Shown: positions 46,858-64,000, counted from the first letter of the stretch. The stretch: DNA of 64,000 nucleotides from Candidatus Cryptobacteroides excrementipullorum (GCA_017695065.1 JADILZ010000041.1:1135-65134), one strand, 5' to 3'. Program-made: numbers and translations. The notes: a model not told the origin generated them from the sequence alone.

Positions 46858-46958
46858 TTTGGAAGGCTAATTATTGCATAACTACCTACTAATCAACGCC
46901 TACAAGCCGCTAATTCCAAATCTACCTCTTACAACAAATTTCAATAGCTAGCCATTAT

Positions 46959-46986
46959 GGGGACAAAAATAATTGTTTTTGTCCCC
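46959..46986. repeat. perfect 11-bp inverted repeat (GGGGACAAAAA-TAATTG-TTTTTGTCCCC) 41 nt upstream of the integrase start
   Basis: Read directly from the sequence. A TAnnTTTG box (TACCTTTG, 46996-47003) follows. Confidence 0.7.
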
Positions 46987-47026
46987 GCTATTTTGTACCT
47001 TTGTAGTAGAAAAAATAGACTGGATT

Positions 47027-48391: not shown

Positions 48392-48395
48392 AGAT

Positions 48396-49265
48396 ATGAA
48401 TCCGATATTCAACTCCCTGAAGGCCCTCTCAGCGGCGGCAAACGAAGTCCTGCCGCTGCTGGAGACCCACGACTACCGCGAAGAAGCCAAGCACGTCAAG
48501 GACGCGAAACTGCCGCTGAGGATGATGCCCAAAACCATCCAGGAGATCTTCAACTCCGTGATGCGCTACATCATCCCCGTAATGGGCGACGAAGACCCGC
48601 TTCCCGGCGATGCCCTTCTGACCAGCGACAACATGACCATCTTCTCCGACAACCTCACCGTCACCGGAGACACACAGCTGGCCCATCAGTTCCAGTTCGT
48701 CCAGATAGAGCCGATTCAGGCCGTGGCCGACGAATTCACGGAACTCGGCCTACACCAGCAGGCCACGCTCCTGGAGAATGTATGCCGATTCGCACGGACC
48801 ATCCGGCAGGCCCATAACGCCGCTCCTTTCGGCAATACAGGGAGAGACCTCGCCCCGGTTCACTACGTCCTGGCGCTCAGTCCGGAGGAACTCAGCCAGC
48901 GGGAAGAAGAAGACAAGATGCTCTTCACCCAGTTCTGCTCCGTCTTCGTCAAGGACATTTTCTCCCTGGAGCAGAAAAAAGACCTGTACGTCGCCCTGCA
49001 GAACGTCATTGCCGATACCACCGAAAAGAAGCCCCACCTGGTGGTGATGACCGTCATTCTCCTGCTGCGCAACCGGAAGGCATACAAGAGCCCCATCCCG
49101 GGCAAGCTCAACTCCGTCCGCGAAACCGTCTTCCATTCCCTCGGCTTAGACCCCAAGTCCTGCCATACCTACGGCGACAAGTCCATCTTGAGGGGCGGCA
49201 AACCCTCCCTTGAAAAGTACAAACCCAAAGCCGAGGACATTTTGAAATCCACAGTTGGGAACTGA
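48396..49265 (+). CDS. hypothetical protein (289 aa)
   Basis: Starts 4 nt after the integrase stop, shares its GC3-rich codon usage and ends at a terminator. No family was recognised. Confidence 0.5.
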   Translation: MNPIFNSLKALSAAANEVLPLLETHDYREEAKHVKDAKLPLRMMPKTIQEIFNSVMRYIIPVMGDEDPLPGDALLTSDNMTIFSDNLTVTGDTQLAHQFQFVQIEPIQAVADEFTELGLHQQATLLENVCRFARTIRQAHNAAPFGNTGRDLAPVHYVLALSPEELSQREEEDKMLFTQFCSVFVKDIFSLEQKKDLYVALQNVIADTTEKKPHLVVMTVILLLRNRKAYKSPIPGKLNSVRETVFHSLGLDPKSCHTYGDKSILRGGKPSLEKYKPKAEDILKSTVGN

Positions 49266-49306
49266 CCCAAATTCCATTTTTGGAAACTTTGGGCAAAACC
49301 TTTGTA

Positions 49307-49335
49307 AACCGCTTGCTATCAAGCGGTTATTTTTT
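49307..49335 (+). terminator. rho-independent terminator after the int/289-aa ORF unit
   Basis: 9-bp stem AACCGCTTG / CAAGCGGTT with a 4-nt loop, followed by ATTTTTT. Confidence 0.65.
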
Positions 49336-49518
49336 GCGTCAAAATACTTGAAAAAAGATTTTTTGGGAATTTCAAGCCCGTTTTTCAACGCCTTACATTT
49401 GTCATGCATTACGATGGAAACGGAAGTAAAGCAGTCGTTCCGGACGATGTAGCCACTGCCTTCAATGGCAACCGCTTTTACTGCTTCGCGGGTGGCTTAA
49501 CCATTAAATCTAAGCATT

Positions 49519-49848
49519 ATGACGCAAGATTTAATCTCCCTCGCCGAGCAGTATCCGGGCCTTACCGTCCAGATCAAGCTCGATGACCTTCTCAAAGCCG
49601 GTCGAACGCTGACCGGCGAGATCCTGGACTACATCGCCGCCCACGGCGCCCAGGCCCCCGTACCCGCTGCGCAGCAGGACGAACTCCTCACCTGCGAGGA
49701 AGCCTGCCGCAAGCTCAGCGTCTCCAACACCACCTTGTGGCGCATGGCGCAGAGCGGACTCCTCACGCCCGTAAAAGTAGGTGTCCAGAACCGTTACCGG
49801 CTCTCCGACATCGCCGAACTCATCAGCAAAAAAGGAGGCAGGGTATGA
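49519..49848 (+). CDS. excisionase/AlpA/MerR-type helix-turn-helix DNA-binding protein
   Basis: The C-terminal half LLTCEEACRKLSVSNTTLWRMAQSGLLTPVKVGVQNRYRLSDIAELI matches the excisionase-family HTH pattern. Confidence 0.75.
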   Translation: MTQDLISLAEQYPGLTVQIKLDDLLKAGRTLTGEILDYIAAHGAQAPVPAAQQDELLTCEEACRKLSVSNTTLWRMAQSGLLTPVKVGVQNRYRLSDIAELISKKGGRV

Positions 49849-50051
49849 GAAAGCCAATGAAAGGAAGTGAGCTTATGCACCGACTCATCCTCAACGACCC
49901 CAACGACCCGTATGTCCAGCTGTTTCGCCGCTGTCCCTTCGTCCAGATTCTGATGCTCCAGCAGGGTTACATGACCCCCGACGAGCTAACGGACGAAGAG
50001 CGCGAACGCATCGGTAACATCATTGATCTGGAGGACCTGCCCCATGACTAA
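49845..50051 (+). CDS. small hypothetical protein (68 aa)
   Basis: ATGA overlap with the upstream stop and an 8-nt overlap with the downstream start, suggesting translational coupling within the module. Confidence 0.45.
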   Translation: MRKPMKGSELMHRLILNDPNDPYVQLFRRCPFVQILMLQQGYMTPDELTDEERERIGNIIDLEDLPHD

Positions 50052-51075
50052 GGAATACCTCCTCTCCAAGACCCTCGGAGGTGCCGATATCATCCAGCAC
50101 CTCATCCGCAAGGAATTCCCGGACCACATCATGCACGTCAAAGGCCAGGACTGCGGCGAATGCCCCGATCCGGTTTGGGCCGATGGCAGCATCATCCAGG
50201 TAACCCTGGACCGCATTCCCATTGAGGGCACCAAGATGGCCGAGTACCGCGCCCGGTATCACTATCCCGATGGCCAGATGCTGGACGGCGATGCCATCGC
50301 CCTGGCTATGGCCTACTACCACCATCGCGGGGAAGACCTCTCCCTGGAGCAGCTCATTGCCCGCCTGGCGGAAGAACTCTACGTCAAGGAACCGCGCAAG
50401 CCCTTCTTCAAAGAGCCTGAGCCCGAGCAGGTGCCGGAACCGAAGCCCAAAGCGCCGGAAGTCGCGCCCTGTCCCAGGATGAGCTTTTTCCGCCGGCCCA
50501 TCCGCAACACGCGACCCTGTCGCGATGCATCCCCGCAGGATGTCTATAAGTATTTGGTGAGCGACTATGCGAAAGCCAATACCGAGACACTCCGCTGCAT
50601 CAAAGACCCGAAGGAACGTAGCAGGTTCAAGTCCCAGAACTTTGATTACGTGACGCCTGGAGGAATCTTCCACAGCCGGAAAGAGTCCGACCTGGTCAAG
50701 GCCAGCGGCTACATGGTCATCGACTTCGACCACATTTCCGACCCAGAAGGCCTGGTGCTCCTGCTGGCCAACGAAGAGAATTTCGAGACCATCCTGGCCT
50801 TCCGTTCTCCTTCCGGTGATGGCGTCAAATGGTTCGTAGCGCTTCCGCCCGATGCCAAAAAGCCCGACGGAACGCCCTTCACCTACGGCGAGTTCTTCAC
50901 CATTCTCAGTAACTATGTCCGTCATGCCTACGGCTACGAAGCAGACCCTTCCGGCAAAGACGTCTGCCGTGCATGCTTCCTGCCGCACGACCCGGACGCA
51001 TTCCTCAACCCGTTTTACCTCGAAGACAATTATGAATACGACATCACAAGATTTCTTGATGGATCTGCTGAGTGA
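50044..51075 (+). CDS. VirE/BT4734-like N-terminal domain protein (primase-associated)
   Basis: The block SFFRRPIRNTRP...DVYKYLVSD...FKSQNFDYVTPGGIFHSRKESDLVKASGYMVIDFDHI resembles the BT4734/VirE-N family usually found upstream of DUF3987 genes in Bacteroides islands. Assignment is from memory of the family. Confidence 0.55.
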   Translation: MTKEYLLSKTLGGADIIQHLIRKEFPDHIMHVKGQDCGECPDPVWADGSIIQVTLDRIPIEGTKMAEYRARYHYPDGQMLDGDAIALAMAYYHHRGEDLSLEQLIARLAEELYVKEPRKPFFKEPEPEQVPEPKPKAPEVAPCPRMSFFRRPIRNTRPCRDASPQDVYKYLVSDYAKANTETLRCIKDPKERSRFKSQNFDYVTPGGIFHSRKESDLVKASGYMVIDFDHISDPEGLVLLLANEENFETILAFRSPSGDGVKWFVALPPDAKKPDGTPFTYGEFFTILSNYVRHAYGYEADPSGKDVCRACFLPHDPDAFLNPFYLEDNYEYDITRFLDGSAE

Positions 51076-52858
51076 GGGCGATAAGCCCTCCTCCCAGCAG
51101 GCCCAGGCTCCTGTCAACCATCCCTCCGCCCCGGTGCCCTCCACGGACACCGGAGCCCGGGTGAAAGCCCTAATCGCCGCTCTGAAAGCCGCCGGTACGG
51201 ACATCACCGCCGACTACAACGACTGGCTCAAGGTGGGCTTTGCCCTGGCCGGAGAGTTCGGTGAATCCGGGCGTGGATACTTCCACGCCATCAGCTCCCT
51301 CTACCCGGGGTATGACCAGGCCGAAAGTGACACTAAGTACACCGAGTGCCTGAAATCAGACTCCGGCAGGACGGATATAAGTACCCTCTTCTATCTTGCG
51401 AAAAATCAGGGTGTTACCCTCGAACGACCCGCGAACGCGCCGGGAACGAGCCACGACATACCACGCAAAAAAGGTCAAAGTGACAAAAATGTCCCTTTGT
51501 CCCTTTTGGAAGATGACCCAGAAGAAATGCCGCTCTTGCCGGTGTTCCCCGAGTCCATCTTCCCGTCTCTTCCCAGCCTGCTCAAAGAAGTCACGGATCT
51601 GATGATTACCGACCAGGAACGCAGCCTTGTTCTCATCGGAAGCATCGCAACAATCAGTTCAGCCCTGCTGCCCTTCAGAACCGTGTATTTCGGCAAGACC
51701 ATTTATCCCAATATGTATTTGTTTGTTCCCGGTCCCGCAGGTGCTGGCAAGGGAAAGCTCGACTTCTGCCTGCGGCTGGTCATGCCCATTCACAAGGAGA
51801 AGTTGGAGCGCTGGAATACGGCCAAAGACGAATACCGCAAGGAATACGCCCGTTACAAACGTCAGAAAAAAGGTGAGAACATCGACCCGCCGGAGAAACC
51901 TCCCATCCAAATGCTTCGTGTTCCGGCCAACAGTTCCGCCACCTCGTTCGCGCAAGCAATGGCGGAGAACGGCAACCTACTGATGTTTGAGACCGAGGGC
52001 GACACCGTGGTCAATTCGTTCTCCAGCGATTTCGGCAACTACAGCGATTCGTTCCGCAAGGCCTTTGCCCACGAGAGTTTCGGGTATTTGCGCCGCGGAG
52101 ACGACGGAGAAGAGAAGGAAATCGACAATCCGCGCCTTTCCACGGTTTTGTCGGGCACGCCGGAGCAAGTGAAATCGCTCATCAGAGATGCCGAAAACGG
52201 GCTCCTTTCACGGTTCATGTTTTTCTGCATCAACGCCACGCCCGAGTGGATGGACGGTTTCGATTCCTATGGCAGCGATGCTCCGCTGGAGGATACCTTT
52301 AACGCCATCGGTGCCAGGTTCTGCGCCTTCGCCAAGACTTTGGAGGACACGCCAACGATCCGGTTCAGTCTCTCGCTCCCGCAGATTGGAAAGTTCAACG
52401 ATTTCTTCAAGGCCGAGAAGCAGCGGATGCAGGATGTCAATGGCGACCGCTATTCTGCCAGCTCCCACCGCTTGGCCTGGTGCTTCCTGCGGGTTGCGAT
52501 GGTGCTTACGGCGCTGCGAATGATGGATTCCGGTGACGTGAGGGAAATAGTTGGATGTGCGGACGTTGACTTCGATGCCACCCTGGAGATCATCCGCGTG
52601 ATTTCGGTCCACAACGACTACATTTTCAACGTTCTTGACCGGGAGCGACCGGAGGGAATCGCCGTGGCCGATTCTTACTCTGCCGCAACCAGGAAGACGA
52701 TTCTGGCGGCTCTGCCGGGTTATTTCAAGACGGACGATATGAAGGACGTGGCTCGGAAAATCGGCAAGACGTTGCGAACGGTAAGGCGACAGGTCGCGCG
52801 GGCAATCCAGGCCGGCGAGGTCAAGCAAGTGAAGCACGGCGAATACAAGAAACTGTAG
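51032..52858 (+). CDS. PriCT-2 + DUF3987 protein (primase C-terminal / helicase-like replication protein)
   Basis: PriCT-2-like segment ITADYNDWLKVGFALAGEFGESGRGYFHAIS, then a DUF3987-like region with a P-loop-like VPGPAGAGKGK. The start was set to MNTTSQDF (51032). Confidence 0.7.
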   Translation: MNTTSQDFLMDLLSEGDKPSSQQAQAPVNHPSAPVPSTDTGARVKALIAALKAAGTDITADYNDWLKVGFALAGEFGESGRGYFHAISSLYPGYDQAESDTKYTECLKSDSGRTDISTLFYLAKNQGVTLERPANAPGTSHDIPRKKGQSDKNVPLSLLEDDPEEMPLLPVFPESIFPSLPSLLKEVTDLMITDQERSLVLIGSIATISSALLPFRTVYFGKTIYPNMYLFVPGPAGAGKGKLDFCLRLVMPIHKEKLERWNTAKDEYRKEYARYKRQKKGENIDPPEKPPIQMLRVPANSSATSFAQAMAENGNLLMFETEGDTVVNSFSSDFGNYSDSFRKAFAHESFGYLRRGDDGEEKEIDNPRLSTVLSGTPEQVKSLIRDAENGLLSRFMFFCINATPEWMDGFDSYGSDAPLEDTFNAIGARFCAFAKTLEDTPTIRFSLSLPQIGKFNDFFKAEKQRMQDVNGDRYSASSHRLAWCFLRVAMVLTALRMMDSGDVREIVGCADVDFDATLEIIRVISVHNDYIFNVLDRERPEGIAVADSYSAATRKTILAALPGYFKTDDMKDVARKIGKTLRTVRRQVARAIQAGEVKQVKHGEYKKL

Positions 52859-52868
52859 CTGAAAGGAG

Positions 52869-52899
52869 CCCCGGGCGGCAGTTCGGGGTTTTCCTTTTT
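52869..52899 (+). terminator. possible rho-independent terminator separating the replication module from the R-M cargo
   Basis: CCCCG...CGGGG 5-bp GC stem with a 10-nt loop, followed by TTTTCCTTTTT. Confidence 0.4.
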
Positions 52900-52964
52900 G
52901 CTTGATTTATTGTAAGTTGAGTGTACGGCGGACACTTTAAATTTTATAATCGGAGGAAAATGCG

Positions 52965-52972
52965 TATATTTG
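52965..52972 (+). promoter_or_regulatory. Bacteroides-type -7 box (TATATTTG) upstream of the R-M operon
   Basis: Exact TAnnTTTG lies 43 nt upstream of the M1 ATG (53015). A T-rich but inexact -33 region sits about 20 nt upstream. Confidence 0.4.
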
Positions 52973-53014
52973 TTAGTTTTAACAGCAAATCAAGCACTTT
53001 CGGGAGATTTTTAT

Positions 53015-54148
53015 ATGAATGTAGTATCGCTATTCGCCAACATTGGTATAGGTGAGGCTTATTTGAAGAGCCTCGGCTTCGATGTTGTTGTGGCTAACGA
53101 ACTGGAGCCCAGACGGGTTGATATATATAGGCAGATCTATCCTAACACCAACATGATATGCGGGGACATCACTGACAAGAAAGTATATTCCAGCATTCGT
53201 AAAGCATGTGAGAAGCAAAAGATAGACGTTATAATGGCAACCCCTCCTTGCCAGGGAATGAGCACGGCAGGTAAACAAGACGAGTTCGACGTAAGGAATG
53301 AATTGTTTCTTTATGCCGTTCAACTGATAAAGGATGTCAAGCCCGATTATTTCATTTTTGAAAACGTTCCCGGGTTTATGACGACATACATCAAATACAA
53401 CGAAGAGAAACGTCTTATCCCCGATGTGATCAAAGAGTTGCTCAGGACAACCTATTCCATGTCTTTCAACATTATTGACACGCAGGATTATGGCGTTCCA
53501 CAGTCTCGTTCGAGAATGATTCTCTTAGGGACCAGACGGCGGGTCGCTCACAAATGGAATATGCCCGAATCCGAACCCGATGTCAAGACTCTCGAGGATG
53601 CTATCGGAGACCTTCCTATACTCGATCCCTTTGTTTACGATGTTTCGGAGGAAGAGATGCTCAAGGTCTTCCCCAACTACAAGAAAAGGGAAAAGGCCGC
53701 ACTGAAGATTTCACCCTGGCATGTACCGCCCCACCATATTCTTCGTCAAGTCATAACTATGCAGCACACGCCTACCGGCTGCTCAGCATTTGACAATGAA
53801 AAGTACAAGCCGAGGAAGAAAAACGGCGAGATAGTCAAGGGATTTCACAATACCTACTCGAGACAGAGGTGGGATGTCCCGGCCTACACTATCGCAATGA
53901 GCAACAACCAGATCTCCACGCAGAATAGTGTACACCCGGGTCGCTATCTCGGGAAAGACGCCAACGGCGACGACATCTACTCAGATCCTCGTGTCTTCAC
54001 GGTATATGAACTGATGCGGATAATGAGTATCCCGGACGATTGGCCCATCCCTACAACCGTGAGCAAGCAGTATTTAAGGCATATCATTGGCGAAGGCGTT
54101 CCTTCGCTCCTGATACGAAAGATATTTGAACAGATTCAAAATGGCTAA
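53015..54148 (+). CDS. DNA (cytosine-5)-methyltransferase, subunit M1 of an LlaJI-type R-M system
   Basis: Motif I LFANIGIGE, motif IV ATPPCQGMS, motif VI ENVPGF, motif VIII QSRSRMILLG, and the motif X region IGEGVPSLL. Confidence 0.9.
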   Translation: MNVVSLFANIGIGEAYLKSLGFDVVVANELEPRRVDIYRQIYPNTNMICGDITDKKVYSSIRKACEKQKIDVIMATPPCQGMSTAGKQDEFDVRNELFLYAVQLIKDVKPDYFIFENVPGFMTTYIKYNEEKRLIPDVIKELLRTTYSMSFNIIDTQDYGVPQSRSRMILLGTRRRVAHKWNMPESEPDVKTLEDAIGDLPILDPFVYDVSEEEMLKVFPNYKKREKAALKISPWHVPPHHILRQVITMQHTPTGCSAFDNEKYKPRKKNGEIVKGFHNTYSRQRWDVPAYTIAMSNNQISTQNSVHPGRYLGKDANGDDIYSDPRVFTVYELMRIMSIPDDWPIPTTVSKQYLRHIIGEGVPSLLIRKIFEQIQNG

Positions 54149-55286
54149 ACGAGCAAAACTTAGAGGACTCTCCCTGTTCGCCAATGTGGGCATTGCAGAA
54201 GCTTATCTGAAAGAAATTGGCGTCGATATGCTCGTGGCCAACGAACTTCTACCAGAACGTGCGCGGTTCTATCAGGACGTGTATCCAGAAACGCACATGG
54301 TCACTGGAGATATTACCGACGACAAGCTTCGCACGGCTATCGTCAACGAGGCAAAGAAGAAGAAAGTTAACTTCATCATGGCCACCCCTCCCTGTCAGGG
54401 AATGAGCCGTGTGGGCAAAATGGATAAGGACGATGTGCGCAACCAACTTATTTATTATGCGGTTGACGTAATTCTGCGGCTGAAACCGGAATTCGTGCTC
54501 ATTGAGAACGTCACGACGATTTTGACGACCAAGATCAAGGTTGACGGCAAAGAAATGCTTATTCCCGAATACCTGAAGGGTGTGCTGGGTGAAGATTACG
54601 TCTTCAATTCTCAATCAAAAGTCAGGGCGATGGATTATTCCATTCCGCAGATGCGTTTAAGGAATATCTATCTGCTTGTACGGAAGGACAAAAATATCAC
54701 TTGGGAATTCCCGGCAAGGACACCTATCGTCACCCTTGAAGACGCCATTGGGAATTTGCCAGACGTAGATCCCTATCTACGTGATGGCTATGATGTCACC
54801 CTGGCTCATTTCCCCGATTTCGAACGCAAGAAAGCTGCTGCTGCAGCCGTTTCGAAATGGCATAGGCCCCCTGTCCACTCATGGCGACTGGTCGAGTGGA
54901 TGATGCATACTCCGACCAATGATTCGGCTATTTTCAATCCAGTACACTATCCTCGCAAGACAGATGGGACCAGGGTATCCGCCCACTACAATCAATATCG
55001 CCGCTTGGCGTGGAATACACCTTGCCGTGCTTTGACCCAGAACAATGGAGTCATTTCTTCCCTTGCCTGCGTTCATCCAGGCAGGCCATATACCGTTAAT
55101 GGCGAGGTCTTATACACAAATCCCCGCGTCCTAACGATATACGAAGTTATGATTGTATCCTCTCTGCCTCTCGATTGGCCTATACCTGAATGGGCAAACG
55201 AGAATTTGATACGAAAGGTCATCGGTGAAGGCATTCCTTCAAGATTGATCAAAGTAATAGTTGAAGAACTCTTATCAAAAATATAG
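54141..55286 (+). CDS. DNA (cytosine-5)-methyltransferase, subunit M2 of an LlaJI-type R-M system
   Basis: LFANVGIAE, ATPPCQGMS, ENV, QMRLRNIYLL, IGEGIPSRL. It overlaps the M1 stop by 8 nt. Confidence 0.9.
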   Translation: MAKRAKLRGLSLFANVGIAEAYLKEIGVDMLVANELLPERARFYQDVYPETHMVTGDITDDKLRTAIVNEAKKKKVNFIMATPPCQGMSRVGKMDKDDVRNQLIYYAVDVILRLKPEFVLIENVTTILTTKIKVDGKEMLIPEYLKGVLGEDYVFNSQSKVRAMDYSIPQMRLRNIYLLVRKDKNITWEFPARTPIVTLEDAIGNLPDVDPYLRDGYDVTLAHFPDFERKKAAAAAVSKWHRPPVHSWRLVEWMMHTPTNDSAIFNPVHYPRKTDGTRVSAHYNQYRRLAWNTPCRALTQNNGVISSLACVHPGRPYTVNGEVLYTNPRVLTIYEVMIVSSLPLDWPIPEWANENLIRKVIGEGIPSRLIKVIVEELLSKI

Positions 55287-55288
55287 TT

Positions 55289-57148
55289 ATGGGAAGTCTT
55301 ATCATGCCTAAGCATACAGGGCTCGTATCCGAGTTTCAAACTCCTCTGAAAGTATGCTACGATAGAAAGGACGTCAACAACGGCTGGGTGGAAAATGGTC
55401 ACGCCAAGCAAGGTATAGATGGTTTTACATTGTATTTATACCAGGAGTATCATGCGGCCAATGCTCTGGGGCACAGTACCCCCAAGAACGATAATTCCGA
55501 TTATACGAAGGATGCTCAGCTTCCTTTGTATTTCGGTTTTATGGAAATCTCTGAAACCCGTTCCAAAGCCCTGCGTAGAATCACTCCAAGCGGAATTGAA
55601 ATGTATGAGGCCCTCGTTGCCAATGACAAGGACAAGATATACTCTTTGTTTATCAACGCCTTGGAAAGTATGACTTTCGGGCGGAACAATAGTGGCTGCG
55701 AGAATTCGGATTCCGATCTGGAGGCCCCGAATATTCTATTGATTAGTTCGGTGATTCTTGGAGGCATCAAGAGGAAGGAATACTATTACATCCTCGAATT
55801 CATGGACGAGAATGGATGTGACCTTTCCAACGCGCTGTCTAAAGTGGCGTATTACAGAAAGAAACAAGAAGACATTCCCGATACGGCTGTGACATATACT
55901 GACGCCAAATTCATTCCCTTCTGGGTGTCTTTAGGCTTCCTTACGGACGCATCCGATGGAAGGCTGCACATCTCATCCGATGTCTTTAATCGCTATGCAG
56001 CGCGAATAATGCGCTTGCGTATCAAGAATACAGAGACACCCAAGAAGCGAAAGATTTACAGCCCCGATGGGACGATGCAGAAGATTTATTACGGTTGTCC
56101 CGGAACCGGAAAGTCCTTCAAGATCAAGGAAGAAATTGAAGGAGTTGACGGTGAACTCGCTGTATATTTTGACGACAAGGGAAAGAAAATCGACACGCCC
56201 GATACGAAAGAGGAGCGGATCGGCAAGCCGAGCAATATATTCCGTACCACCTTCCATCCAGACTATGATTATGCTACATTTGTAGGCTCATATAAGCCCG
56301 TCATGGAAGTGGTCAAGGAGAAGACTGAAAACCAAAAGGAGGAAAAAGAACTGGGCTATTCTTTTGTTCCACAGGTATTTACAAAAGCTTATATTCGAGC
56401 CTATAACTCAAAGAAGGACAAAACTTTATCGAGTGACGAAAAGAATGTGTACCTAATTATTGAAGAAATCAATCGTGGTAATTGTGCGCAGATTTTCGGA
56501 GACCTTTTCCAGTTGCTTGACCGCAAAGGTGGTGTTTCAGAATTCCCGGTCGTCCCTGATACAGAGCTAATCAATTATCTGAATAAGGAAGGCATTCCGG
56601 GTAATACAATTAGATTGCCTGAGAACCTTCATATTCTGGCCACAATGAATACCTCTGACCAGAGTTTGTTCCCAATGGATTCAGCTTTCAAGAGGCGCTG
56701 GTCGATGGAGTACATTCCGATTAACCTCCAGCAAGAGATTGCCCAAAAATACACTTTCAGAGTTAAAGGAAAGGAGTATTCATGGGTCAAATTCCTCGAA
56801 AAAGTCAACCCCCTCATTCGCAAGGCTACGGACAGCGAGGATAAGCAGATGGGCGAATTCTTCATCAAAGGCGACATTTCCGAGGAAGATTTCAAGAACA
56901 AGGTAATGTTCTACCTCTGGAATGACGTGTGCAAGGATCTCTACTCCGCCAGTCGCATTTCTCCGTTATACTTTATGCGCAGCGACGATGCCGAAGGGAA
57001 TAAGAACGTTTTCACTTTTGCCGAGCTTTACGGGAAAGGACGTTACGAGGATGACACCAAAGATTACACAGCCCCTGTTGATTTGCTTGAGGGTTTCATC
57101 ACCAAGAAACTGGGCCTTACCCACTTACCCGCTCAGAACCAGGAATAA
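55289..57148 (+). CDS. McrB-family AAA+ NTPase (LlaJI R1-like restriction subunit)
   Basis: YYGCPGTGKSF Walker A, LIIEEINRGNCAQIFGDLFQLLDR, and ILATMNTSDQSL...DSAFKRRW, the McrB/GTPase signature blocks. The ~270-aa N-terminal domain was not recognised. Confidence 0.85.
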   Translation: MGSLIMPKHTGLVSEFQTPLKVCYDRKDVNNGWVENGHAKQGIDGFTLYLYQEYHAANALGHSTPKNDNSDYTKDAQLPLYFGFMEISETRSKALRRITPSGIEMYEALVANDKDKIYSLFINALESMTFGRNNSGCENSDSDLEAPNILLISSVILGGIKRKEYYYILEFMDENGCDLSNALSKVAYYRKKQEDIPDTAVTYTDAKFIPFWVSLGFLTDASDGRLHISSDVFNRYAARIMRLRIKNTETPKKRKIYSPDGTMQKIYYGCPGTGKSFKIKEEIEGVDGELAVYFDDKGKKIDTPDTKEERIGKPSNIFRTTFHPDYDYATFVGSYKPVMEVVKEKTENQKEEKELGYSFVPQVFTKAYIRAYNSKKDKTLSSDEKNVYLIIEEINRGNCAQIFGDLFQLLDRKGGVSEFPVVPDTELINYLNKEGIPGNTIRLPENLHILATMNTSDQSLFPMDSAFKRRWSMEYIPINLQQEIAQKYTFRVKGKEYSWVKFLEKVNPLIRKATDSEDKQMGEFFIKGDISEEDFKNKVMFYLWNDVCKDLYSASRISPLYFMRSDDAEGNKNVFTFAELYGKGRYEDDTKDYTAPVDLLEGFITKKLGLTHLPAQNQE

Positions 57149-57160
57149 TATATAAGCCCG

Positions 57161-58933
57161 ATGCTCGTCTATTTCGAAGGATACTATTACCCTGACAAAT
57201 CGGTCTTCGACAAGATCAAAGTTGAAGATCCCGATAAATATGTTGTGCCGGTTCAGCGCGATAGAAAAGGGTGGTATGTAGAGCATATCGGTTATTTGTT
57301 TGTATCCATGGAGGGCGGTGGAGAACCGGTCTTCATTCTTCCCAAAAACTTCTTAAAGAACGATACGGCCCATCCTGAGGAGGGTCTGACGTTGCTTGGT
57401 ATGCCCGGAGTCAAGCCGGAAAAAGTATTCGATTCAGACCCAGAAAAGAATATTCTTTCACAGCGCGGCCAGGAAACCTTTTTGCCAGAATTAAGTCTTT
57501 GGCTCTTCCGCGCAATGTCTCGATACCGTGAAGAGCGGGAAAAGGAGAAAACGGAGATTCAGAAAGATGAGCTGTACTACCGCGCCCCAGATCACGGGGC
57601 ATATGACCGTGATTTTCTAAGTACAGCCATTCATCTTATTGACTTCCTCTCCGACCATCGAAACCTATTCACGCAGATTAGCAAGATAAACAACTCGGGC
57701 CGTGCCGCGGTTGACTGGTCTAAAACCATTCAGCAACATCCGTTCATCAAGGGTGGCAAACCGTATTATCTTGATCTCCGCATCAAGGACAAAGCCATCA
57801 ACATCGATGAGGAGCTTATTGTCCTTTACTACTCTGTTCTCAGATACCTCAAGGAGAAGTTCCATTTCCGTATCAACTACGGTGAGATCAATTACCCGCT
57901 TAAAACCCGCTCGGAGATTCAGAACTATCTGGATACGGGCGTAGGCAAGCGCCGGATGCGCGACATGAAGGGGAAATACTTCCGAGATGACCTTTTGGAG
58001 TTATGGGCTCTTTTGGACGCGTTTTTCGATTGCAACATCAGCCGAGACGACAAAGATCCCATAAAAGAGTGCCTTGTAACCAAGCAATTCCACAAGGTCT
58101 TCGAAAGGATGGTTGATGCTCTCATTAGCAACTCTGACAAACTTGAGCGCTTGAAGAACCAGAAGGACGGGAAACTGGTTGACCATCTTTTCCTTTACAA
58201 ATCCCTCGTTGGTTCGAAGCACACCATCTACTACATCGGTGACAGCAAATACTATCCTGACGCCAACCATGCAGAAGATGTCGCTCTTTACAAGCAGTTC
58301 ACTTATGCCCGTAATGCTATCCAGTACAATATAGATCAGTATTATATCCATCACAAGAAGAATCCTGACGCCATCCGCTACCGAGACAAGGATACGGAAG
58401 GGTATAACGTCACGCCCAACTTCTTCATCTGCCCGAAGATAGAAGCAGGCAACCTCGATTTTACGCAGCATTCTTTTGCTGCCGCATCATGGGAATACGA
58501 GCCTAACAGACATTTTGAAGATCGTCTGTTTGATCGTGACACACTCCTGCTAAGAGAGTATGAAATCAACCTCATTTTTCTTATTGCAGCTTACGGCGCT
58601 TATGAAGACTGCTGGACTGACAGTCTCCACAAAACCATTCGGGAAGACATGATCGATTTCCTTAACGAGACCTATAATTTCTTCAAGATAGAGCCGATGG
58701 ATTATCCTGTCTCCTCCCAAAATGGCCTGATAGACAAATGGCCGTTCACCAAAGTATTTCGCCGCACTCTTGAAGGAAAGGCCTACAAAGAGGACGAGGA
58801 CTCTAAGGACATCATCCTCGCCTTTGAAAAGAAAACCGAAACGGGTAAAAAAGACTACAAATTCGTCCACGATGAAATCAAGGACTATGTCATTGGCGGC
58901 AGTATTGATGATCCTATACCCCTGAAGCCGTGA
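57161..58933 (+). CDS. LlaJI-family / McrC-like restriction endonuclease subunit (R2)
   Basis: It follows the McrB-like gene in M1-M2-R1-R2 order. It has a PD-(D/E)xK-like YYIGDSKYY motif, as in McrC/LlaJI R2. The family assignment rests on context plus this motif. Confidence 0.7.
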   Translation: MLVYFEGYYYPDKSVFDKIKVEDPDKYVVPVQRDRKGWYVEHIGYLFVSMEGGGEPVFILPKNFLKNDTAHPEEGLTLLGMPGVKPEKVFDSDPEKNILSQRGQETFLPELSLWLFRAMSRYREEREKEKTEIQKDELYYRAPDHGAYDRDFLSTAIHLIDFLSDHRNLFTQISKINNSGRAAVDWSKTIQQHPFIKGGKPYYLDLRIKDKAINIDEELIVLYYSVLRYLKEKFHFRINYGEINYPLKTRSEIQNYLDTGVGKRRMRDMKGKYFRDDLLELWALLDAFFDCNISRDDKDPIKECLVTKQFHKVFERMVDALISNSDKLERLKNQKDGKLVDHLFLYKSLVGSKHTIYYIGDSKYYPDANHAEDVALYKQFTYARNAIQYNIDQYYIHHKKNPDAIRYRDKDTEGYNVTPNFFICPKIEAGNLDFTQHSFAAASWEYEPNRHFEDRLFDRDTLLLREYEINLIFLIAAYGAYEDCWTDSLHKTIREDMIDFLNETYNFFKIEPMDYPVSSQNGLIDKWPFTKVFRRTLEGKAYKEDEDSKDIILAFEKKTETGKKDYKFVHDEIKDYVIGGSIDDPIPLKP

Positions 58934-59514
58934 GCGCGGTCTCTCCACAGCGGTCATTCATCATGTCACAAGTTCACTCCAAGAACACGACTCCGGAGAA
59001 GATTGTGAGGGCCGAGTTGTGGCACAGAGGTTACCGGTATCGGCTCAATGACAAGCGCCTGCCCGGCAGGCCCGACCTCGTGCTGCCCAAGTACCGCGCT
59101 GTCATCTTCATCAACGGCTGCTTCTGGCACGGCCATAAAGGCTGCTCTAAGTTTACCGTTCCCAAGACAAACGAAGAATTCTGGCGCGAGAAGGTTGCCC
59201 AGAACATCGCCCGCGACGAAATCAATGCTCAGCGCCTCGATACACTTTCCTGGACAGTCATCACCGTCTGGGAGTGCGAACTGTCGAAGAAGAACCGCGA
59301 TGCCACCATTGCCCGCATAGAGTCCGATTTACGGGCCGCAAAGGCCAAATACGACAAATGGACCGCCCTCCGCCGCGAGAGCCGTGAATACGCCCGAGAA
59401 CAGGCCAGAAAGCATCGTGAAATCCTCGCCCAGGTCGAAGCAGAACTGAATCTGCCAAAAAGCCTCCGCCGCTACGCAAAGAAAGCCGAACAGATTACAG
59501 AAGAATCCTTATGA
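58930..59514 (+). CDS. vsr: very short patch repair endonuclease Vsr with a ~45-aa charged C-terminal extension
   Basis: RSFIMSQVHSKNTTPEKIVRAELWHRGYRYRLN...LPGRPDLVLPKYRAVIFINGCFWHGH...WECE. The GTG start overlaps the R2 stop (GTGA). Confidence 0.9.
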   Translation: MSAVSPQRSFIMSQVHSKNTTPEKIVRAELWHRGYRYRLNDKRLPGRPDLVLPKYRAVIFINGCFWHGHKGCSKFTVPKTNEEFWREKVAQNIARDEINAQRLDTLSWTVITVWECELSKKNRDATIARIESDLRAAKAKYDKWTALRRESREYAREQARKHREILAQVEAELNLPKSLRRYAKKAEQITEESL

Positions 59515-59903
59515 AGACGATAGAAGTAGTTGCAGCCATCATCCGCAAGGATGACAAGATATTCGCCACCCAGCGGGGCTACGGTGAATGGAAAGACTAT
59601 TGGGAGGCCCCAGGTGGTAAGGTCGAGCCGGGCGAAAGCCCCATCCAGGCACTCCGGCGCGAGATACGAGAGGAACTGGACACTGAAATCAGTGTCGATA
59701 AATTCCTTACGACAATTGAATGGGACTATCCTAAGTTTCACCTCACGATGCACTGCTATATGTGCTCCCTGCTGAATGACGCACTGCATCTGAATGAGCA
59801 CGAGGCCGCCCGCTGGCTGGGAGTTGATGACCTTCGCAGTGTCAATTGGCTCCCAGCCGACGACCAGCTTCTTCCTCTTATTGAGAGGGAGCTTTCGATT
59901 TAG
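59511..59903 (+). CDS. Nudix hydrolase (MutT-like (deoxy)nucleoside triphosphate pyrophosphohydrolase)
   Basis: Nudix box GGKVEPGESPIQALRREIREELD. The ATG overlaps the vsr stop (ATGA). Confidence 0.85.
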   Translation: MKTIEVVAAIIRKDDKIFATQRGYGEWKDYWEAPGGKVEPGESPIQALRREIREELDTEISVDKFLTTIEWDYPKFHLTMHCYMCSLLNDALHLNEHEAARWLGVDDLRSVNWLPADDQLLPLIERELSI

Positions 59904-60534
59904 TGTCCACTACGACATATCCGCCAGCCGAGTCAAACTCTACCCATCGACCTTTGCCCAATTTTATGCGGGCGATTCTGTGTTCCTCTTTGGGGATTAC
60001 GATTTCATCGTCAGTCAGGCCGATATACTTAAGTAGGTCCTGAACTGTTGCCGGCCCCCCTTTTTGATGCTGCAGCTCATACTTGCAGTGCCTGAGTTTG
60101 TCGCTGGCCAGCTGGTCGCGAAGTGTAGTAGCACGAAGGCGCCATCCGGTGACCATCTCGTAGCCCTTCTTGCCACATTTGCATTCATACTCCAGATCCA
60201 CACGGCCACTAAGCGGAGAGCCAACATACCGGTAAGGGAAAATGGCTTTTTCGCACTTCGGACAAGTTACCTGGAATAATTCCGGATACTCCATGTTACA
60301 ACGTATGAATGACCCAAGCCAAACTGGATCAGGAGCCATCTCAATCGCTTTTCCGGCGATGCAATAAACCATCTCCGGGTACAGGGGGATGAAGTAGAAA
60401 CGGTCGATGTCCTTCCATTCATCGAAGCTGGCGTAAATCACGCCGGCGTTGCGGTAGAACACTTTGGTGTGGAGCATCTGCTCCTTGGTAGGACGAGGTC
60501 CGCCCTGCCTGAAGAAATTGTACTTGTCTTGCAT
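59878..60534 (-). CDS. hypothetical protein with an internal Cys4 zinc-ribbon-like motif (218 aa)
   Basis: CPKCEK...x23...CKCGKKG. The start was trimmed to MQDKYNFF (60534) within the 59878-60873 ORF. It converges on the Nudix gene and overlaps its end by 26 nt. Confidence 0.45.
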   Translation of the reverse strand: MQDKYNFFRQGGPRPTKEQMLHTKVFYRNAGVIYASFDEWKDIDRFYFIPLYPEMVYCIAGKAIEMAPDPVWLGSFIRCNMEYPELFQVTCPKCEKAIFPYRYVGSPLSGRVDLEYECKCGKKGYEMVTGWRLRATTLRDQLASDKLRHCKYELQHQKGGPATVQDLLKYIGLTDDEIVIPKEEHRIARIKLGKGRWVEFDSAGGYVVVDTKSKAPSQ

Positions 60535-60690
60535 GATACAGACTTTTTTTGATTGAACATCCGCATCGTTTTGCCACCGTGGCAGTCTGGCTCGCTCGGT
60601 TGGCGCTCCTCTGGGGAGACTCTTGATGCACGATGCAAAAGTAAGTAGAATTTCGTAAATTTGCAATCTAACACCAAAACACATAATAAC

Positions 60691-60900
60691 ATGGCAACAA
60701 TCTATACAGTAATATGCCCCAAGTGTGGCCACAAGTTTGAGGTCACTAAAGGTATCCTGATGAGCGAAGCGAATCTTGACCCCGTCCCTGAAGAACGCAA
60801 AGAGGAAACTCCGTTCAAGTGCCCTGTATGCGGTCTTGAGATGTCGACGCAGGACGAGGACTTCAACCAGCACTGCGAGTCGGTGATAATGGCTGACTGA
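60691..60900 (+). CDS. small zinc-ribbon protein (69 aa)
   Basis: CPKCGHKF...x32...CPVCGLEM, two CxxC pairs. A TAAATTTG -7 box lies at 60656-60663. Confidence 0.55.
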   Translation: MATIYTVICPKCGHKFEVTKGILMSEANLDPVPEERKEETPFKCPVCGLEMSTQDEDFNQHCESVIMAD

Positions 60901-60903
60901 CCG

Positions 60904-61608
60904 ATGGCCATGCAGAACGTCTATACCGAAGAAGAACTGTACTGGAGCCGCGGAGGCAACACCGGTACTCTTCCTGAACGTATAACTCCGTCACAGGTCA
61001 ATGTCCTGGCCGATGGGGAAATCTTCGTCTTTGGCAGCAATTTTCAGGGCCGACATATGGGCGGCGCTGCACGCGTTGCTCAGGAGAAATACGGAGCCGT
61101 CTGGGGTATAGGAGAAGGCCTGCAGGGCCAATCCTACGCCATACCGACGATGGAAGGCCTGGAGAATCTCGCTCCGGCCGTCCAGCGCTTCACCTCCTTC
61201 GCCCGGCAGCACAAAGAATTGAAGTTCTTCGTCACCGCCATCGGCTGCGGCATTGCCGGCTATCAGCCCGAAGAGATTGCGCCTATGTTCCTGAATGCGG
61301 CCTATCTGCCGAATGTCTTCCTGCCGCTGTCCTTCTGGAAGATCATCATGCATATCCCCGGCGCAGAGGAAAGTGTCCGGTCCTTCGCCCAGTCCGTCTT
61401 GGATGTCTGCCGATACGCCCACCGCAACAATCCGCCCACCTGGACCACCGCCACCGACGAAGCCCTCTTCAACGGCCTTGAGCGCGACCAGCACTGGCAG
61501 CTCGGCATCCTCCTGGGAATCATTTCGCCGGCTGATGAAGAGCCGCAGACGAAGGAACTGCCGGCAGAACTCAAGCAGAAGATCCTTGACGCATTGAAGA
61601 AGGCCTGA
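60904..61608 (+). CDS. A1S_2505-like phage-associated protein with a ~100-aa C-terminal extension
   Basis: IFVFGSNFQGRHMGGAARVA...GLQGQSYAIPT...FFVTAIGCGIAGY matches my recollection of the A1S_2505 family of phage non-structural proteins (GSNxxGxHGxGAA / SYAIPT / TxIGCGLAG). Confidence 0.55.
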   Translation: MAMQNVYTEEELYWSRGGNTGTLPERITPSQVNVLADGEIFVFGSNFQGRHMGGAARVAQEKYGAVWGIGEGLQGQSYAIPTMEGLENLAPAVQRFTSFARQHKELKFFVTAIGCGIAGYQPEEIAPMFLNAAYLPNVFLPLSFWKIIMHIPGAEESVRSFAQSVLDVCRYAHRNNPPTWTTATDEALFNGLERDQHWQLGILLGIISPADEEPQTKELPAELKQKILDALKKA

Positions 61609-61676
61609 CAATTTACGTCAGATGCAAAAAGAAACGACATTTGTAATACAAGATAACCCCCAAAACAGATATAGCC

Positions 61677-61964
61677 ATGATGGATTTACGCGACTACACG
61701 GCCATCTATAAGGATGCTGATAGACAAATCCTTGTAAACAAGTCTGAGTTTAACTATAGCCTCGTTGCTAAGGATGGAGATGCTTTTACCGAGATTCTTG
61801 TTTCAGCCGAGGAAATTGATAATTCGATGACGTTCCCTGAGGCCGAAAAAATGTCCTGGAAGAAGCAGTTCGAACTCTTGTTTGGCAATAAGAATGGTTT
61901 CGATGGCCTCATCAAGTATTGTGACGAGAACGAGATCTCAACACAGATTCTGAACTGGGACTAA
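61677..61964 (+). CDS. hypothetical protein (95 aa)
   Basis: ORF only. It lies on the same strand within the cluster and has lower GC than its neighbours. Confidence 0.4.
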   Translation: MMDLRDYTAIYKDADRQILVNKSEFNYSLVAKDGDAFTEILVSAEEIDNSMTFPEAEKMSWKKQFELLFGNKNGFDGLIKYCDENEISTQILNWD

Positions 61965-61997
61965 TCTGGACGTCCATAGTTGCATGATTAAAAACAC

Positions 61998-62705
61998 ATG
62001 AACATGAAAAAGGTCTTACAATACACCCTCCTGCTGGTCATCGCCATTGTTTCGCTTTCTGCCTGTAAATCAAATGAGCAGAAAGCAGCAGCATTAATCA
62101 AGGATTACATGTTCAAGAATCTCTTTGATTATGAGAGTTATGAGCCAATAGAGACATCTATAGATAGCGCTTATAACCAGCCTATGATGAATAGTCAGAT
62201 TCTTGCTCTTGCCTTTGATTCGGTAGAGAAAGAGAAAGAAGCAGAAGAGCATCATGAAGAATATGAAGACGCATCTCGTACTAGGGATATTTGGAGCGGC
62301 GGTTGGTCCTCATACAGCACAAAGGAATATAATAAAGCTCGTAAGAAAGCAATAGAAGAGCTCATTGCCTCGATTGAGGGCACTAGGGCATCTGTCAGAA
62401 ACTTGAAGCAGATCAAATCTATGGCCGATACGCTTTCATCAGGATTTATCGGATGGTCTGCCATCCATAGTTTCAGGTGTAATACGCAGGGTGGTAATAA
62501 AACTATCGGGAACTATCTCTTCATCTTCGATAAAAGTTTCAAAACCATCCTCAATGTATTTGATGCCAATGACGAAGAACTGGTTGCAGCTATAGATAAA
62601 ATCGGGACAGCCCAGGCTATGACCGACGAACAGTTTATGGAGCTGGAAGAGCAGTTTACTGGCCAGATTACCCAACTGCAAGACGGGTTAGCCAAAATAA
62701 AATAG
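61998..62705 (+). CDS. hypothetical lipoprotein (235 aa)
   Basis: Signal peptide plus lipobox (LLLVIAIVSLSAC). The remainder was not recognised. Confidence 0.6.
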   Translation: MNMKKVLQYTLLLVIAIVSLSACKSNEQKAAALIKDYMFKNLFDYESYEPIETSIDSAYNQPMMNSQILALAFDSVEKEKEAEEHHEEYEDASRTRDIWSGGWSSYSTKEYNKARKKAIEELIASIEGTRASVRNLKQIKSMADTLSSGFIGWSAIHSFRCNTQGGNKTIGNYLFIFDKSFKTILNVFDANDEELVAAIDKIGTAQAMTDEQFMELEEQFTGQITQLQDGLAKIK

Positions 62706-62787
62706 TCATTAACGTTCTGGTCTGAGCCTGGGAATAGCAGTTCTTCGGGTCAAGACCATAATAGGGAAAACAGTTTGATGCTAAAAG

Positions 62788-63324
62788 ATGGAGATTGGGC
62801 TTAATCATATACATAGAACCTATGGTTTCCCGCCACTGTTGTGCGATGAACCAAGAATCTTGATTCTGGGCACACTGCCTGGTGGGGAATCACTGGAGCA
62901 TCGGCAATACTACTATTCCAATTCCAACCGGATTTGGAAGGTGTTGTGCCACATTAAAGGAGAGCCGATGCCGATAGCCTATGCCCAGAAACAGGCCCTG
63001 CTTGCGAAGTATCACATCGTCCTCTGGGACTACTACGAATCCGCTATCCGGCCAGATAGCAGCAATGACAAAGACATCCGGGACGGTCATCCCAACGATA
63101 TACCAGCCTTCCTTGCCGCTCATCCTACCATCAAGACCATTGGCATCAACGGATTTGGGAAGTACAAAGACTTCGGCCGCAAGATTGCGAGAGAGCTGGC
63201 GCAAATACCGGCCCTTGCCGATGTCCGTGTACTCCGGCTTCCGGAAACCAGTGGAAGCAACAAGAACTACGGCTGGGGATATGTAGAAAACCTTGCCCGG
63301 GAATGGGCACATATCTTTGACTGA
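62788..63324 (+). CDS. UDG-superfamily DNA glycosylase (family-6 / hypoxanthine-DNA-glycosylase-like)
   Basis: ILILGTLPGGESL...QYYYSNSNRIWKVL matches the GxxPGxxS...YYxxxxNxFW pattern of DNA-deoxyinosine (hypoxanthine) glycosylases. ETSGSN lies near the C-terminus. Confidence 0.65.
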   Translation: MEIGLNHIHRTYGFPPLLCDEPRILILGTLPGGESLEHRQYYYSNSNRIWKVLCHIKGEPMPIAYAQKQALLAKYHIVLWDYYESAIRPDSSNDKDIRDGHPNDIPAFLAAHPTIKTIGINGFGKYKDFGRKIARELAQIPALADVRVLRLPETSGSNKNYGWGYVENLAREWAHIFD

Positions 63325-63329
63325 CGCTT

Positions 63330-63689
63330 ATGTACGAGAATGAATCAGCTGCTGTCCGTGCGGGAATAGACTTTCTGCAGGCTCTGACCGAGAAAGATTA
63401 CCTCCTCGATCCCACCTTCGATGTCCTGGATCTGGAGCAGAAGCTGATTGAGATTCAGGCCGATGTCAACTTCCTCATCTCCAACCTGCCAGTTGAGGCC
63501 ATTGACGATGACCAGGAGAGGGAGGAAGAGTATCCCGGCGATTTCGAAGACGGCGAAGAACTGGAGGACGAAGTGGTGGAATGCGAGAAGCTGATTGCTC
63601 AAGCTACGGGGCTCCTGGCCGCAGTCCGCGAGCATTATCTGCCAAGTCCATCAATCCAGCCGTTGTGGTTTGATGTAGAAATAGAATGA
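63330..63689 (+). CDS. hypothetical, strongly acidic protein (119 aa)
   Basis: By hand count, about 33 Asp/Glu versus about 6 Lys/Arg. It starts 5 nt after the glycosylase stop. Its last 9 codons and stop lie inside the first CRISPR repeat. Confidence 0.45.
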   Translation: MYENESAAVRAGIDFLQALTEKDYLLDPTFDVLDLEQKLIEIQADVNFLISNLPVEAIDDDQEREEEYPGDFEDGEELEDEVVECEKLIAQATGLLAAVREHYLPSPSIQPLWFDVEIE

Positions 63690-63879
63690 ATTACAACGAA
63701 GCCGCAGCCGTGGCACTGAACAAAGCAGTCGTGGTTTGATGTAGAAATAGAATGAATTACAACTGCAGGATAGACACCCCAGTCCGCTCTACAGTTGTGG
63801 TTTGATGTAGAAATAGAATGAGTAATAACGCAGATGTACTGTACATACAGCATCATCGTGTTGTGATTTGATGTAGAAA
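63662..63879 (+). CRISPR. CRISPR mini-array: three full 36-nt repeats plus one decayed terminal repeat, with three 30-nt spacers
   Basis: Repeats lie at 63662-63697, 63728-63763 (1 mismatch), 63794-63829 (3 mismatches) and 63860-63879 (first 20 nt only, 1 mismatch). The consensus is GTTGTGGTTTGATGTAGAAATAGAATGAATTACAAC. The spacers are exactly 30 nt and unrelated to one another. Confidence 0.85.
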
Positions 63880-64000
63880 AGCCATATGTGTCCGGTAAAA
63901 ATCCGGACTAGTTATTATAAAGTATAACAATTAAAATAAAGTAGGTTCGGTAGAACCATCCGGTTCATTGACAATATTGCAGTTAGGTTTACAGAACAGT

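Follow-up and report, generated by a model that had tools for sequence, protein, structure and literature searches.

At the right-hand edge of a 64,000-nt stretch of Candidatus Cryptobacteroides excrementipullorum DNA (GCA_017695065.1, JADILZ010000041.1:1135-65134; the whole stretch is referred to here as the window) lies a CRISPR array of only three spacers, joined directly to a short open reading frame. The locus raises the question of which CRISPR type the array belongs to, how it came to lie where it does, and whether it is still of use to the cell. A sequence-only reading of the same DNA had described it as a mini-array whose left-hand 63.6 kb contain no recognisable cas gene, had read its geometry as that of Cas13b (type VI-B) arrays, and had offered type II-C as the alternative.

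The repeats themselves are real. Four copies occur in the window, all on the + strand and with a start-to-start period of exactly 66 nt, and the 20-nt 5′ core (three mismatches or fewer) is found four times in the window against zero times in each of 100 dinucleotide-preserving shuffles. Relative to repeat 1 (63662..63697; GTTGTGGTTTGATGTAGAAATAGAATGAATTACAAC), repeat 2 (63728..63763) has one mismatch, T3C in the window's lineage, and starts with GTTG in L002, L004, L006 and L014; repeat 3 (63794..63829) keeps the 5′ 20 nt intact and carries three changes in its 3′ part (positions 29, 31 and 33). Spacer 1 (63698..63727), spacer 2 (63764..63793) and spacer 3 (63830..63859) are each 30 nt long, and a degenerate terminal (trailer) repeat 4 (63860..63882), present as the first 23 nt only in the window's lineage, closes the array. 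Our recount agrees with the sequence-only reading on three copies of a 36-nt repeat, on spacers of exactly 30 nt with the sequences it quoted, and on a gradient of 0, 1 and 3 mismatches towards the right. The fourth copy is decayed as it described, but has 23 nt in common with a fuller version of the repeat in L006 and not merely the first 20. The terminal stem of about 11 bp that it noted does fold in silico (−7.9 kcal/mol, z = −3.2), although most members of the repeat family have a stem of only 5–6 bp. Tandem Repeats Finder did not report the array in the window, but this is normal where unique spacers lie between the copies.

The type of the array was read from loci that carry the same repeat elsewhere. 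A scan with GTNGTGNTTTGATGTAGAAA against one genome per species gave at least 119 genome stretches matching the 5′ core, nearly all from Bacteroidales, and among the matches listed the hosts are Alistipes, Rikenellaceae, Tidjanibacter, Prevotella, Muribaculaceae and Ca. Cryptobacteroides. The consensus of this family is GTTGTGGTTTGATGTAGAAA followed by 16 variable 3′ nucleotides, usually ending in CAAC, with the 5′ 20 nt conserved; spacers in its arrays are 29–30 nt long, a range that the 30-nt spacers of the window fit. At 13 of 16 inspected loci the array lies downstream of a Cas1-like ORF of ~296 aa on the same strand, and a Cas9-like protein of ~1,200 aa (start ...GLDLGTNSIGWA) is encoded upstream of the Cas1-like ORF where the locus extends so far. 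NCBIfam/Pfam profiles identified the proteins of one such locus, L104, as Cas9 (TIGR01865, 448 bits), Cas1 of the NMENI subtype (295 bits) and Cas2.

Repeats of L104 and L041 agree with window repeat 1 at 35 of 36 positions, and those of two complete II-C loci agree with it at all 36. L160, found by scanning metagenomes with the exact 36-mer, contains cas9-cas1-cas2 and at least 14 repeats identical to repeat 1. L173 (GCA_021153285.1), reached through a 99%-identical Cas9, is a complete locus consisting of tracrRNA, cas9, cas1, cas2, leader (~125 nt) and an array with ten identical repeats and a terminal repeat cut to its first 19 nt. In both L173 and L174, cas9, cas1 and cas2 alone stand before the array, with no csn2 and no cas4, hence the family is II-C and not II-A or II-B. 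Its Cas9 has >6,000 homologs at E ≤ 1e-100, including in Alistipes and Tidjanibacter MAGs. With high confidence, the window array is an orphan fragment of a type II-C (Cas9) array; what had been offered as the alternative type is the one whose genes adjoin the exact 36-mer in L160 and L173.

Conversely, there is next to no chance that the array belongs to an RNA-targeting type VI-B (Cas13b) system. It resembles VI-B arrays such as that of Prevotella sp. P5-125 in its 36-nt repeat, its 30-nt spacers and its GTTG...CAAC ends, and the last eight nucleotides of the PspCas13b repeat are presumably those of the window repeat as well. The likeness to PspCas13b remarked on in the sequence-only reading holds for the GTTGTGG and ATTACAAC ends, the first 7 nt of the window repeat being common to the published 5′ 23 nt of the PspCas13b repeat, but goes no further, as by our own count (those 23 nt per PMC11512209) the two agree at only 18 of 36 positions and the interior is unrelated. 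Moreover, the repeat family, including the exact 36-mer, adjoins cas9-cas1-cas2 wherever cas genes are visible, a matching tracrRNA exists, the long form of the terminal stem is not kept across the family, and the window is without any ORF of at least 1,000 aa. A 36/30 geometry with GTTG...CAAC ends thus does not identify Cas13b; the type is decided by the genes adjoining the same repeat elsewhere and by the tracrRNA, and the effector of this repeat family is Cas9 with a tracrRNA. With the Cas13b reading also goes the remark that such an orphan arrangement is out of the ordinary among RNA-targeting systems.

The sequence-only reading had proposed a search for an anti-repeat, and the family does have a tracrRNA. 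A conserved RNA gene with the layout TTCTACATCTTAYCACAAT-AAGGCTATATGCCGAAGG-hairpin-terminator is present in ~30 family loci, and in all four that were position-checked (L104, L021, L029 and L173) the tracrRNA gene with the anti-repeat TTCTACATCTTAYCACAAT lies directly upstream of cas9 and is read from the opposite strand. Pairing between the anti-repeat TCTACATCTTAYCACAAT and the repeat covers repeat nucleotides 1–8 and 11–18, with a 2-nt internal mismatch between the two blocks. From this pairing it follows that the crRNA sense is the + strand of the window and that only the 5′ ~20 nt of the repeat matter, and it accounts for the conservation pattern of the family, in which the 5′ part is kept and the 3′ part is variable. 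The tracrRNA gene was not found in the 64-kb window with a covariance model run with filters off: the maximum score, 15 bits, came from the array's own complement, the best hit outside the array reached 11 bits (E = 2.8), and an untrained control locus scored 90 bits. An 18-mer resembling the anti-repeat at 46921, followed by a hairpin, was considered as a tracrRNA and rejected, having three mismatches and being unscored by the covariance model.

The protein-coding part of a II-C locus is likewise missing from the window. Searches of the whole window (tblastn) with the Cas9 and Cas1 of the repeat family gave only hits with E > 1, bearing out the earlier observation of a genuine mini-array with no cas gene to its left. 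Of the ten largest ORFs checked, one encodes the primase of the island and the others are housekeeping genes, for LptD, RelA/SpoT, LigA, GlnA-III, FtsH, Rho, a TonB-dependent receptor, a DUF3857/transglutaminase protein and a Big_5-domain protein. No cas9-cas1-cas2 set lies beside the array in the 63.6 kb to its left or in a right flank that covers just 141–272 nt. A leader before repeat 1 is also absent from the window, because repeat 1 is fused straight onto the coding sequence of a truncated gene.

This truncated gene (ORF 63330..63689, + strand) forms the left edge of the array. It is a 3′-truncated copy of a conserved gene for an acidic, tail-anchored protein of ~150 aa, in in-frame fusion with repeat 1, which supplies the last nine codons. 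The 268 homologs detected are typically 149–161 aa long and align only with the first ~106–111 residues of the ORF; in P0001, the nearest homolog that is intact (99% identical), the protein goes on with ...ETTPAPSKPTQTKKKKDIDWSFLWIIIFLGILIAGAILS, in which a lysine-rich stretch precedes a C-terminal transmembrane helix. Nucleotide homology of L163 and L164 to the window ends exactly at 63661, and repeat 1 begins at the next base. Since homologs are longer and the homology of L163 and L164 stops at this point, the edge at 63661/63662 is a breakpoint that destroyed the gene. The idea that breaks recur near the 3′ end of this 150-aa gene was considered and dropped, as the short homolog P0016 is a point nonsense mutant with no rearrangement. 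In-place deletion of a cas operon at this locus is unsupported, since no cas locus or repeat sequence lies near the intact 150-aa gene among the relatives examined. The three genes adjoining the array are found among ordinary chromosomal genes in relatives.

On a larger scale, the array is placed at the far end of a ~17-kb strain-variable segment (46821..63661, + strand) between two conserved anchors, ~217 nt short of the right border. The comparison with L142, an island-free variant which is 98% identical to the window up to 46820 and then diverges, confirms what the sequence-only reading had described as an accessory stretch following an integrase. The left border is marked by a 5′ fragment of the native NUDIX gene (46712..46820, + strand), and the integrase (46973-48391, + strand) heads the segment. 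Genes from 46821 are the integrase, HTH_17, a BT4734-like gene and a PriCT_2/DUF3987 primase, then two type II C5 methyltransferases, an LlaJI-type restriction enzyme, a 590-aa protein and Vsr, among which is an LlaJI-like restriction-modification system with Vsr; the right part ends in the truncated ORF, preceded by another NUDIX gene and a deoxyinosine glycosylase. Neither att repeats nor a second insertion site of the segment were found, and none of the contigs shows a simple empty site, L142 carrying other genes that replace the whole segment. An island end at the second NUDIX gene (59.5 kb) was rejected because the two NUDIX genes are homologous over their full length (67%) and L142 diverges already from 46821.

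The right end of the array differs between lineages. In L006 the fourth repeat is complete but degenerate (27/36 by eye); the window shares its first 23 nt, and throughout the window lineage (L001, L005, L011 and L013) the repeat is cut after nucleotide 23 with other DNA beyond. As the bona fide terminal repeat of L173 also keeps just 19 nt, repeat 4 of the window is a normal trailer repeat, and the break in it sits just past the tracrRNA-pairing part. From here on (63883..64000) the window departs from L006, and the lineage-specific DNA that replaces the rest of repeat 4 contains a terminator-like hairpin on the + strand (63890-63908), beyond which a gene on the minus strand reaches in with its 3′ end (stop near 63931, from a gene call on L005). 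This right-flank DNA has no match in plasmids, and neither right flank has homology, as DNA or protein, to what adjoins complete arrays. A distance of 217 nt separates the L006 array from the stop codon of a convergent conserved gene, and the final 55 nt of this contig are identical to the end of L142.

A complete cas operon just right of position 64000, which would make this an ordinary array end, is very unlikely. The idea draws on the fact that every assembly of the window lineage breaks there, so that the DNA known beyond repeat 4 amounts to 118 nt in the window and 141 nt in the longest contigs; the 15 contigs with the exact 178-aa or 119-aa proteins all run on for no more than 465 nt beyond the ORF. 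In JGI metagenomes, a 39-mer taken from the right anchor had no match, and the helicase of the island-free variant led to one 4.9-kb contig, ending short of the right anchor. However, the cas genes of the family, where visible, lie upstream of the array, and here the upstream side is a truncated gene; the degenerate repeat of L173 is at the end away from the cas genes; the L006 array runs through its 217 nt into the stop of a convergent conserved gene common to the island-free variant; and the window flank holds the end of a gene on the minus strand, the last 30 residues of which resemble no Cas protein of the fetched loci.

The junction between ORF and repeat is present in ten independent assemblies, of which six contain all three spacers in full and a seventh (L004) reaches part of spacer 3, and in every assembly that reaches them the spacers have the same identity and order, with a single SNP in spacer 1 (L006) and no variation in spacer 2. 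Segregating sites number three in the 221 nt of the array and 28 in 1,664 nt of flanking genes. Polymorphism in the array is hence no higher than in its flanks, with no sign that the array is under special constraint or decays more quickly.

A search for spacer targets, also suggested in the sequence-only reading, succeeded for spacer 3 and not for the other two. Spacer 3 matches a DUF4134 (TraE-type) conjugation gene at 27 of 30 positions, with 14 perfect PAM-proximal nucleotides and three mismatches; the matches lie in 12 IMG/VR contigs and in two plasmids, one from Phocaeicola and one recorded for P. distasonis. The target gene adjoins the DUF4133 and DUF87 conjugation genes of Bacteroidales conjugative elements. 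Read on the gene strand, the spacer encodes TMMLYVQYIC, where targets have TMMLYVLYIC and TMMLYVQYII, and because it encodes this DUF4134 family motif the match is real. The protospacers share CACCAC as their 3′ flank, the next base being G in the hits that match at 27/30 and A in L147. For spacers 1 and 2, no credible protospacer was detected in phages and plasmids (BLAST), in IMG/VR (exact match only) or in conjugative-element loci.

Taken together, we lean towards a fragment that is mainly a non-functional, decaying remnant with frozen spacers. The sequence is most probably the trailer end of a II-C array, with three old spacers, three repeats and a degenerate terminal repeat, which a DNA rearrangement probably parted from its cas9-cas1-cas2 genes, tracrRNA gene and leader. 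It sits in an uncultured animal-gut Bacteroidales host, with ~217 nt between it and the right border of the variable segment, and its right end was broken a second time in the window's lineage. The sequence-only reading had suggested a mini-array that borrows a Cas effector from elsewhere; both edges look instead like rearrangement scars, the gene on the left being truncated and the terminal repeat on the right broken. With neither Cas1-Cas2 nor a leader alongside, new spacers would not be gained by the normal route, and on its own the fragment is presumably inert. Against a remnant, polymorphism in the array is not above that of its flanks, all three spacers keep a usable downstream 5′ segment, the array has the same sense strand as the upstream operon, and the target of spacer 3 is biologically sensible. 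The array may be transcribed by read-through, as the upstream genes are on the same strand with no terminator before it, and a cognate Cas9 may well be encoded elsewhere in the host genome. If the family Cas9 and tracrRNA were present there, up to three working crRNAs could result, one of them against a conjugative-element gene.

These observations give some substance to the view that the fragment is a working array at a distance, whose read-through transcript is processed by a tracrRNA and Cas9 encoded elsewhere in the genome, although we consider this doubtful. Such an array would defend the cell against conjugative elements, or its integrase-headed island against rival elements. Active II-C systems have the very sequence of repeat 1, the 5′ 20 nt that pair with the tracrRNA are intact or one base off after every spacer, the upstream ORFs on the same strand are complemented by a terminator-like hairpin after the array, and spacer 3 hits the DUF4134 conjugation gene with a perfect 14-nt seed. 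The array is also stably present in all assemblies of the locus, the Cas9 family is very large, and surveys find that such arrays often match cas systems in trans (PMC7145637). Yet no Cas9 or tracrRNA is tied to the host organism, and the cognate Cas9 (99% identical to that of L160) was not found in the same samples as the mini-array, being seen solely in others. Moreover, neither the destroyed gene on the left nor the broken end on the right looks like a selected design, spacer 3 meets its targets with three mismatches, and spacers 1 and 2 have no known target. The narrower proposal that the island wields the fragment as a weapon, its read-through RNA joining a resident II-C Cas9 and tracrRNA so that the island, or its host, excludes DUF4134-bearing conjugative elements, is unlikely; if true, an integrative island would here carry a type II mini-array that acts wholly in trans. 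Were a cognate Cas9 present, the locus would be of moderate interest as a small example of a type II array acting at a distance against conjugative elements.

A role as an RNA decoy or anti-CRISPR is highly improbable. Repeat-bearing transcripts would here titrate the resident Cas9-tracrRNA, as proposed for viral solitary repeat units, a concept reviewed in PMC11656645. The fragment is cas-less and lies within a variable, integrase-headed segment, and solitary copies of the same repeat exist elsewhere (e.g. L162), but its three spacers are regular 30-mers and a plausible protospacer is known for one of them or more, which gives it the look of an array fragment, and the neighbouring cargo is defence (restriction-modification) and not counter-defence. 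Reading the locus as mainly a decaying II-C remnant agrees with what is found in the rest of the family, where cas-less fragments are common and have already been reported. Among the fetched genome loci, L035, L077, L093 and L125 are cas-less arrays of three to four repeats, and solitary repeats recur too, including an exact copy of the window repeat in L162. In L035, L048 and L105 the tracrRNA gene, as its reverse complement, lies right against the remnant, a layout which suggests that recombination between anti-repeat and repeat might delete the cas operon. The present case shows the II-C arrays of gut Bacteroidales splitting into cas-less pieces at variable defence hot spots, by which strain tracking and the assignment of hosts from CRISPR sequences can be led astray.

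Known systems place the fragment in context. The orphan array reported in Alistipes shahii has the same repeat core (PMC6390457); like the window array it is cas-less, and the first 19 nt of the two repeats are identical, but it numbered 36 spacers in the assembly of a transplant-donor sample, with a nine-spacer subset in the recipient, whereas the window array has three that never vary. Orphan and distant arrays are frequent and some are usable in trans (Bernheim et al. 2019, PMC7145637). The window array is similarly short, away from cas genes and possibly usable by a compatible type II system, although, unlike those arrays, both its edges are visibly rearranged. CRISPR2 of Enterococcus faecalis, which works with the cas9 encoded at CRISPR1, is alike in the same respects. 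It has been described as an orphan locus (PMC4580645). Mini-arrays of viruses and mobile elements exploit host Cas proteins against rival elements (reviewed in PMC11656645), and the window array resembles them in being very short, with repeats identical to those of a cellular system, a position in a variable integrase-headed segment and one spacer that matches a mobile element. It differs from them in that the adjoining genes are chromosomal in relatives, a gene was destroyed at the left junction, and the element targeted is conjugative and unrelated, not a sibling. Compared with the II-C loci of Bacteroidales, the window array lacks cas9, cas1, cas2, tracrRNA and leader, has only three spacers and follows a truncated, unrelated gene. 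It nevertheless shares with them a 36-nt repeat identical to that of L160 and L173, the family-wide 5′ 20-nt core, complementarity to the tracrRNA and, as in L173 where only the 5′ ~19 nt are kept, a terminal repeat that has been cut short.

Among the matches listed, three loci with the same repeat family as the window's array (L035, L048 and L105) carried the tracrRNA gene as its reverse complement, with a short array or a solitary repeat immediately after it. In reverse complement, the anti-repeat reads ATTGTGGTAAGATGTAGAA, which is identical to the 5′ end of the repeat at 16 of 19 positions; the two lie in direct orientation flanking cas9-cas1-cas2. Judged from this sequence layout, recombination between ATTGTGGTAAGATGTAGAA and the repeat is suggested as a route by which the cas operon would be lost, so that a tracrRNA and a mini-array remain.

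A complete II-C array in Bacteroidales bacterium SIG151 (L041) has a repeat identical to the window's at 35 of 36 positions, and a truncated tyrosine-integrase gene (a 3′ fragment) lies just past its last repeat, ~100–400 nt beyond the trailer end of the array. This integrase fragment is 76% identical to window positions 48230–48358. Locus L162 (JAEIGA010055351.1) possessed one solitary 36-nt repeat, an exact match to the window's, at locus positions 480–515 (minus strand) and in an unrelated gene context; it belongs to the same metagenome record set as L160, which encodes a complete cas9-cas1-cas2 locus.

The variable segment, at the far end of which the window's array lies, starts within a native NUDIX gene (5′ fragment at 46712–46820), interrupting it at about codon 37, and carries a full NUDIX homolog of its own (59511–59903). 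In the island-free variant L142, the alternative segment includes what remains of this native gene, followed in the list of its contents by a 138-aa gene, a UvrD protein resembling helicase IV, and a PLD-like gene that is split. The sole tRNA of the window, tRNA-Cys (GCA; 6729–6800, plus strand), does not adjoin the integrase segment and is therefore not its insertion site. The stretch that separates the integrase gene from the island border contains an 18-mer resembling the tracrRNA anti-repeat, with three mismatches, and after it a strong hairpin, GGGGACAAAAATAATTGTTTTTGTCCCC (46921–47000, plus strand). As a tracrRNA this candidate was rejected, the tracrRNA covariance model returning no score for it.

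Further into the segment is a LlaJI-like restriction-modification cassette (52970–59514, plus strand), which includes a Vsr nicking endonuclease as well as two type II C5 methyltransferases and a 619-aa AAA_5/REase_II protein with a putative partner of 590 aa. A SAM-I/IV riboswitch was also detected within the segment (60535–60634, minus strand; 57.5 bits, above the gathering score). It overlaps a long ORF at 59878–60873 and lies upstream of a shorter 218-aa gene which is called at that place on other contigs.

Beside the array, the gene portion at 63330–63661 and its homologs P0001–P0120 form a conserved family of ~150-aa proteins with a very acidic body and a C-terminal end made up of a lysine-rich stretch and then a transmembrane helix. 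The family had no match in Pfam or NCBIfam. In the window and in P0001–P0120, its gene is always preceded by a UDG-like/deoxyinosine glycosylase gene. The family gene is pseudogenised in several lineages: P0016 carries a nonsense mutation, and P0080 and P0093 are further short variants.

Twelve IMG/VR contigs of 29–79 kb (L148–L159), catalogued as viral, carry the DUF4134 protospacer, the conjugation-gene match of spacer 3, in the same allele as a Parabacteroides plasmid region. That plasmid region encodes DUF4133, DUF4134 and DUF87 conjugation genes plus an integrase. The twelve contigs may represent conjugative elements and not viruses.
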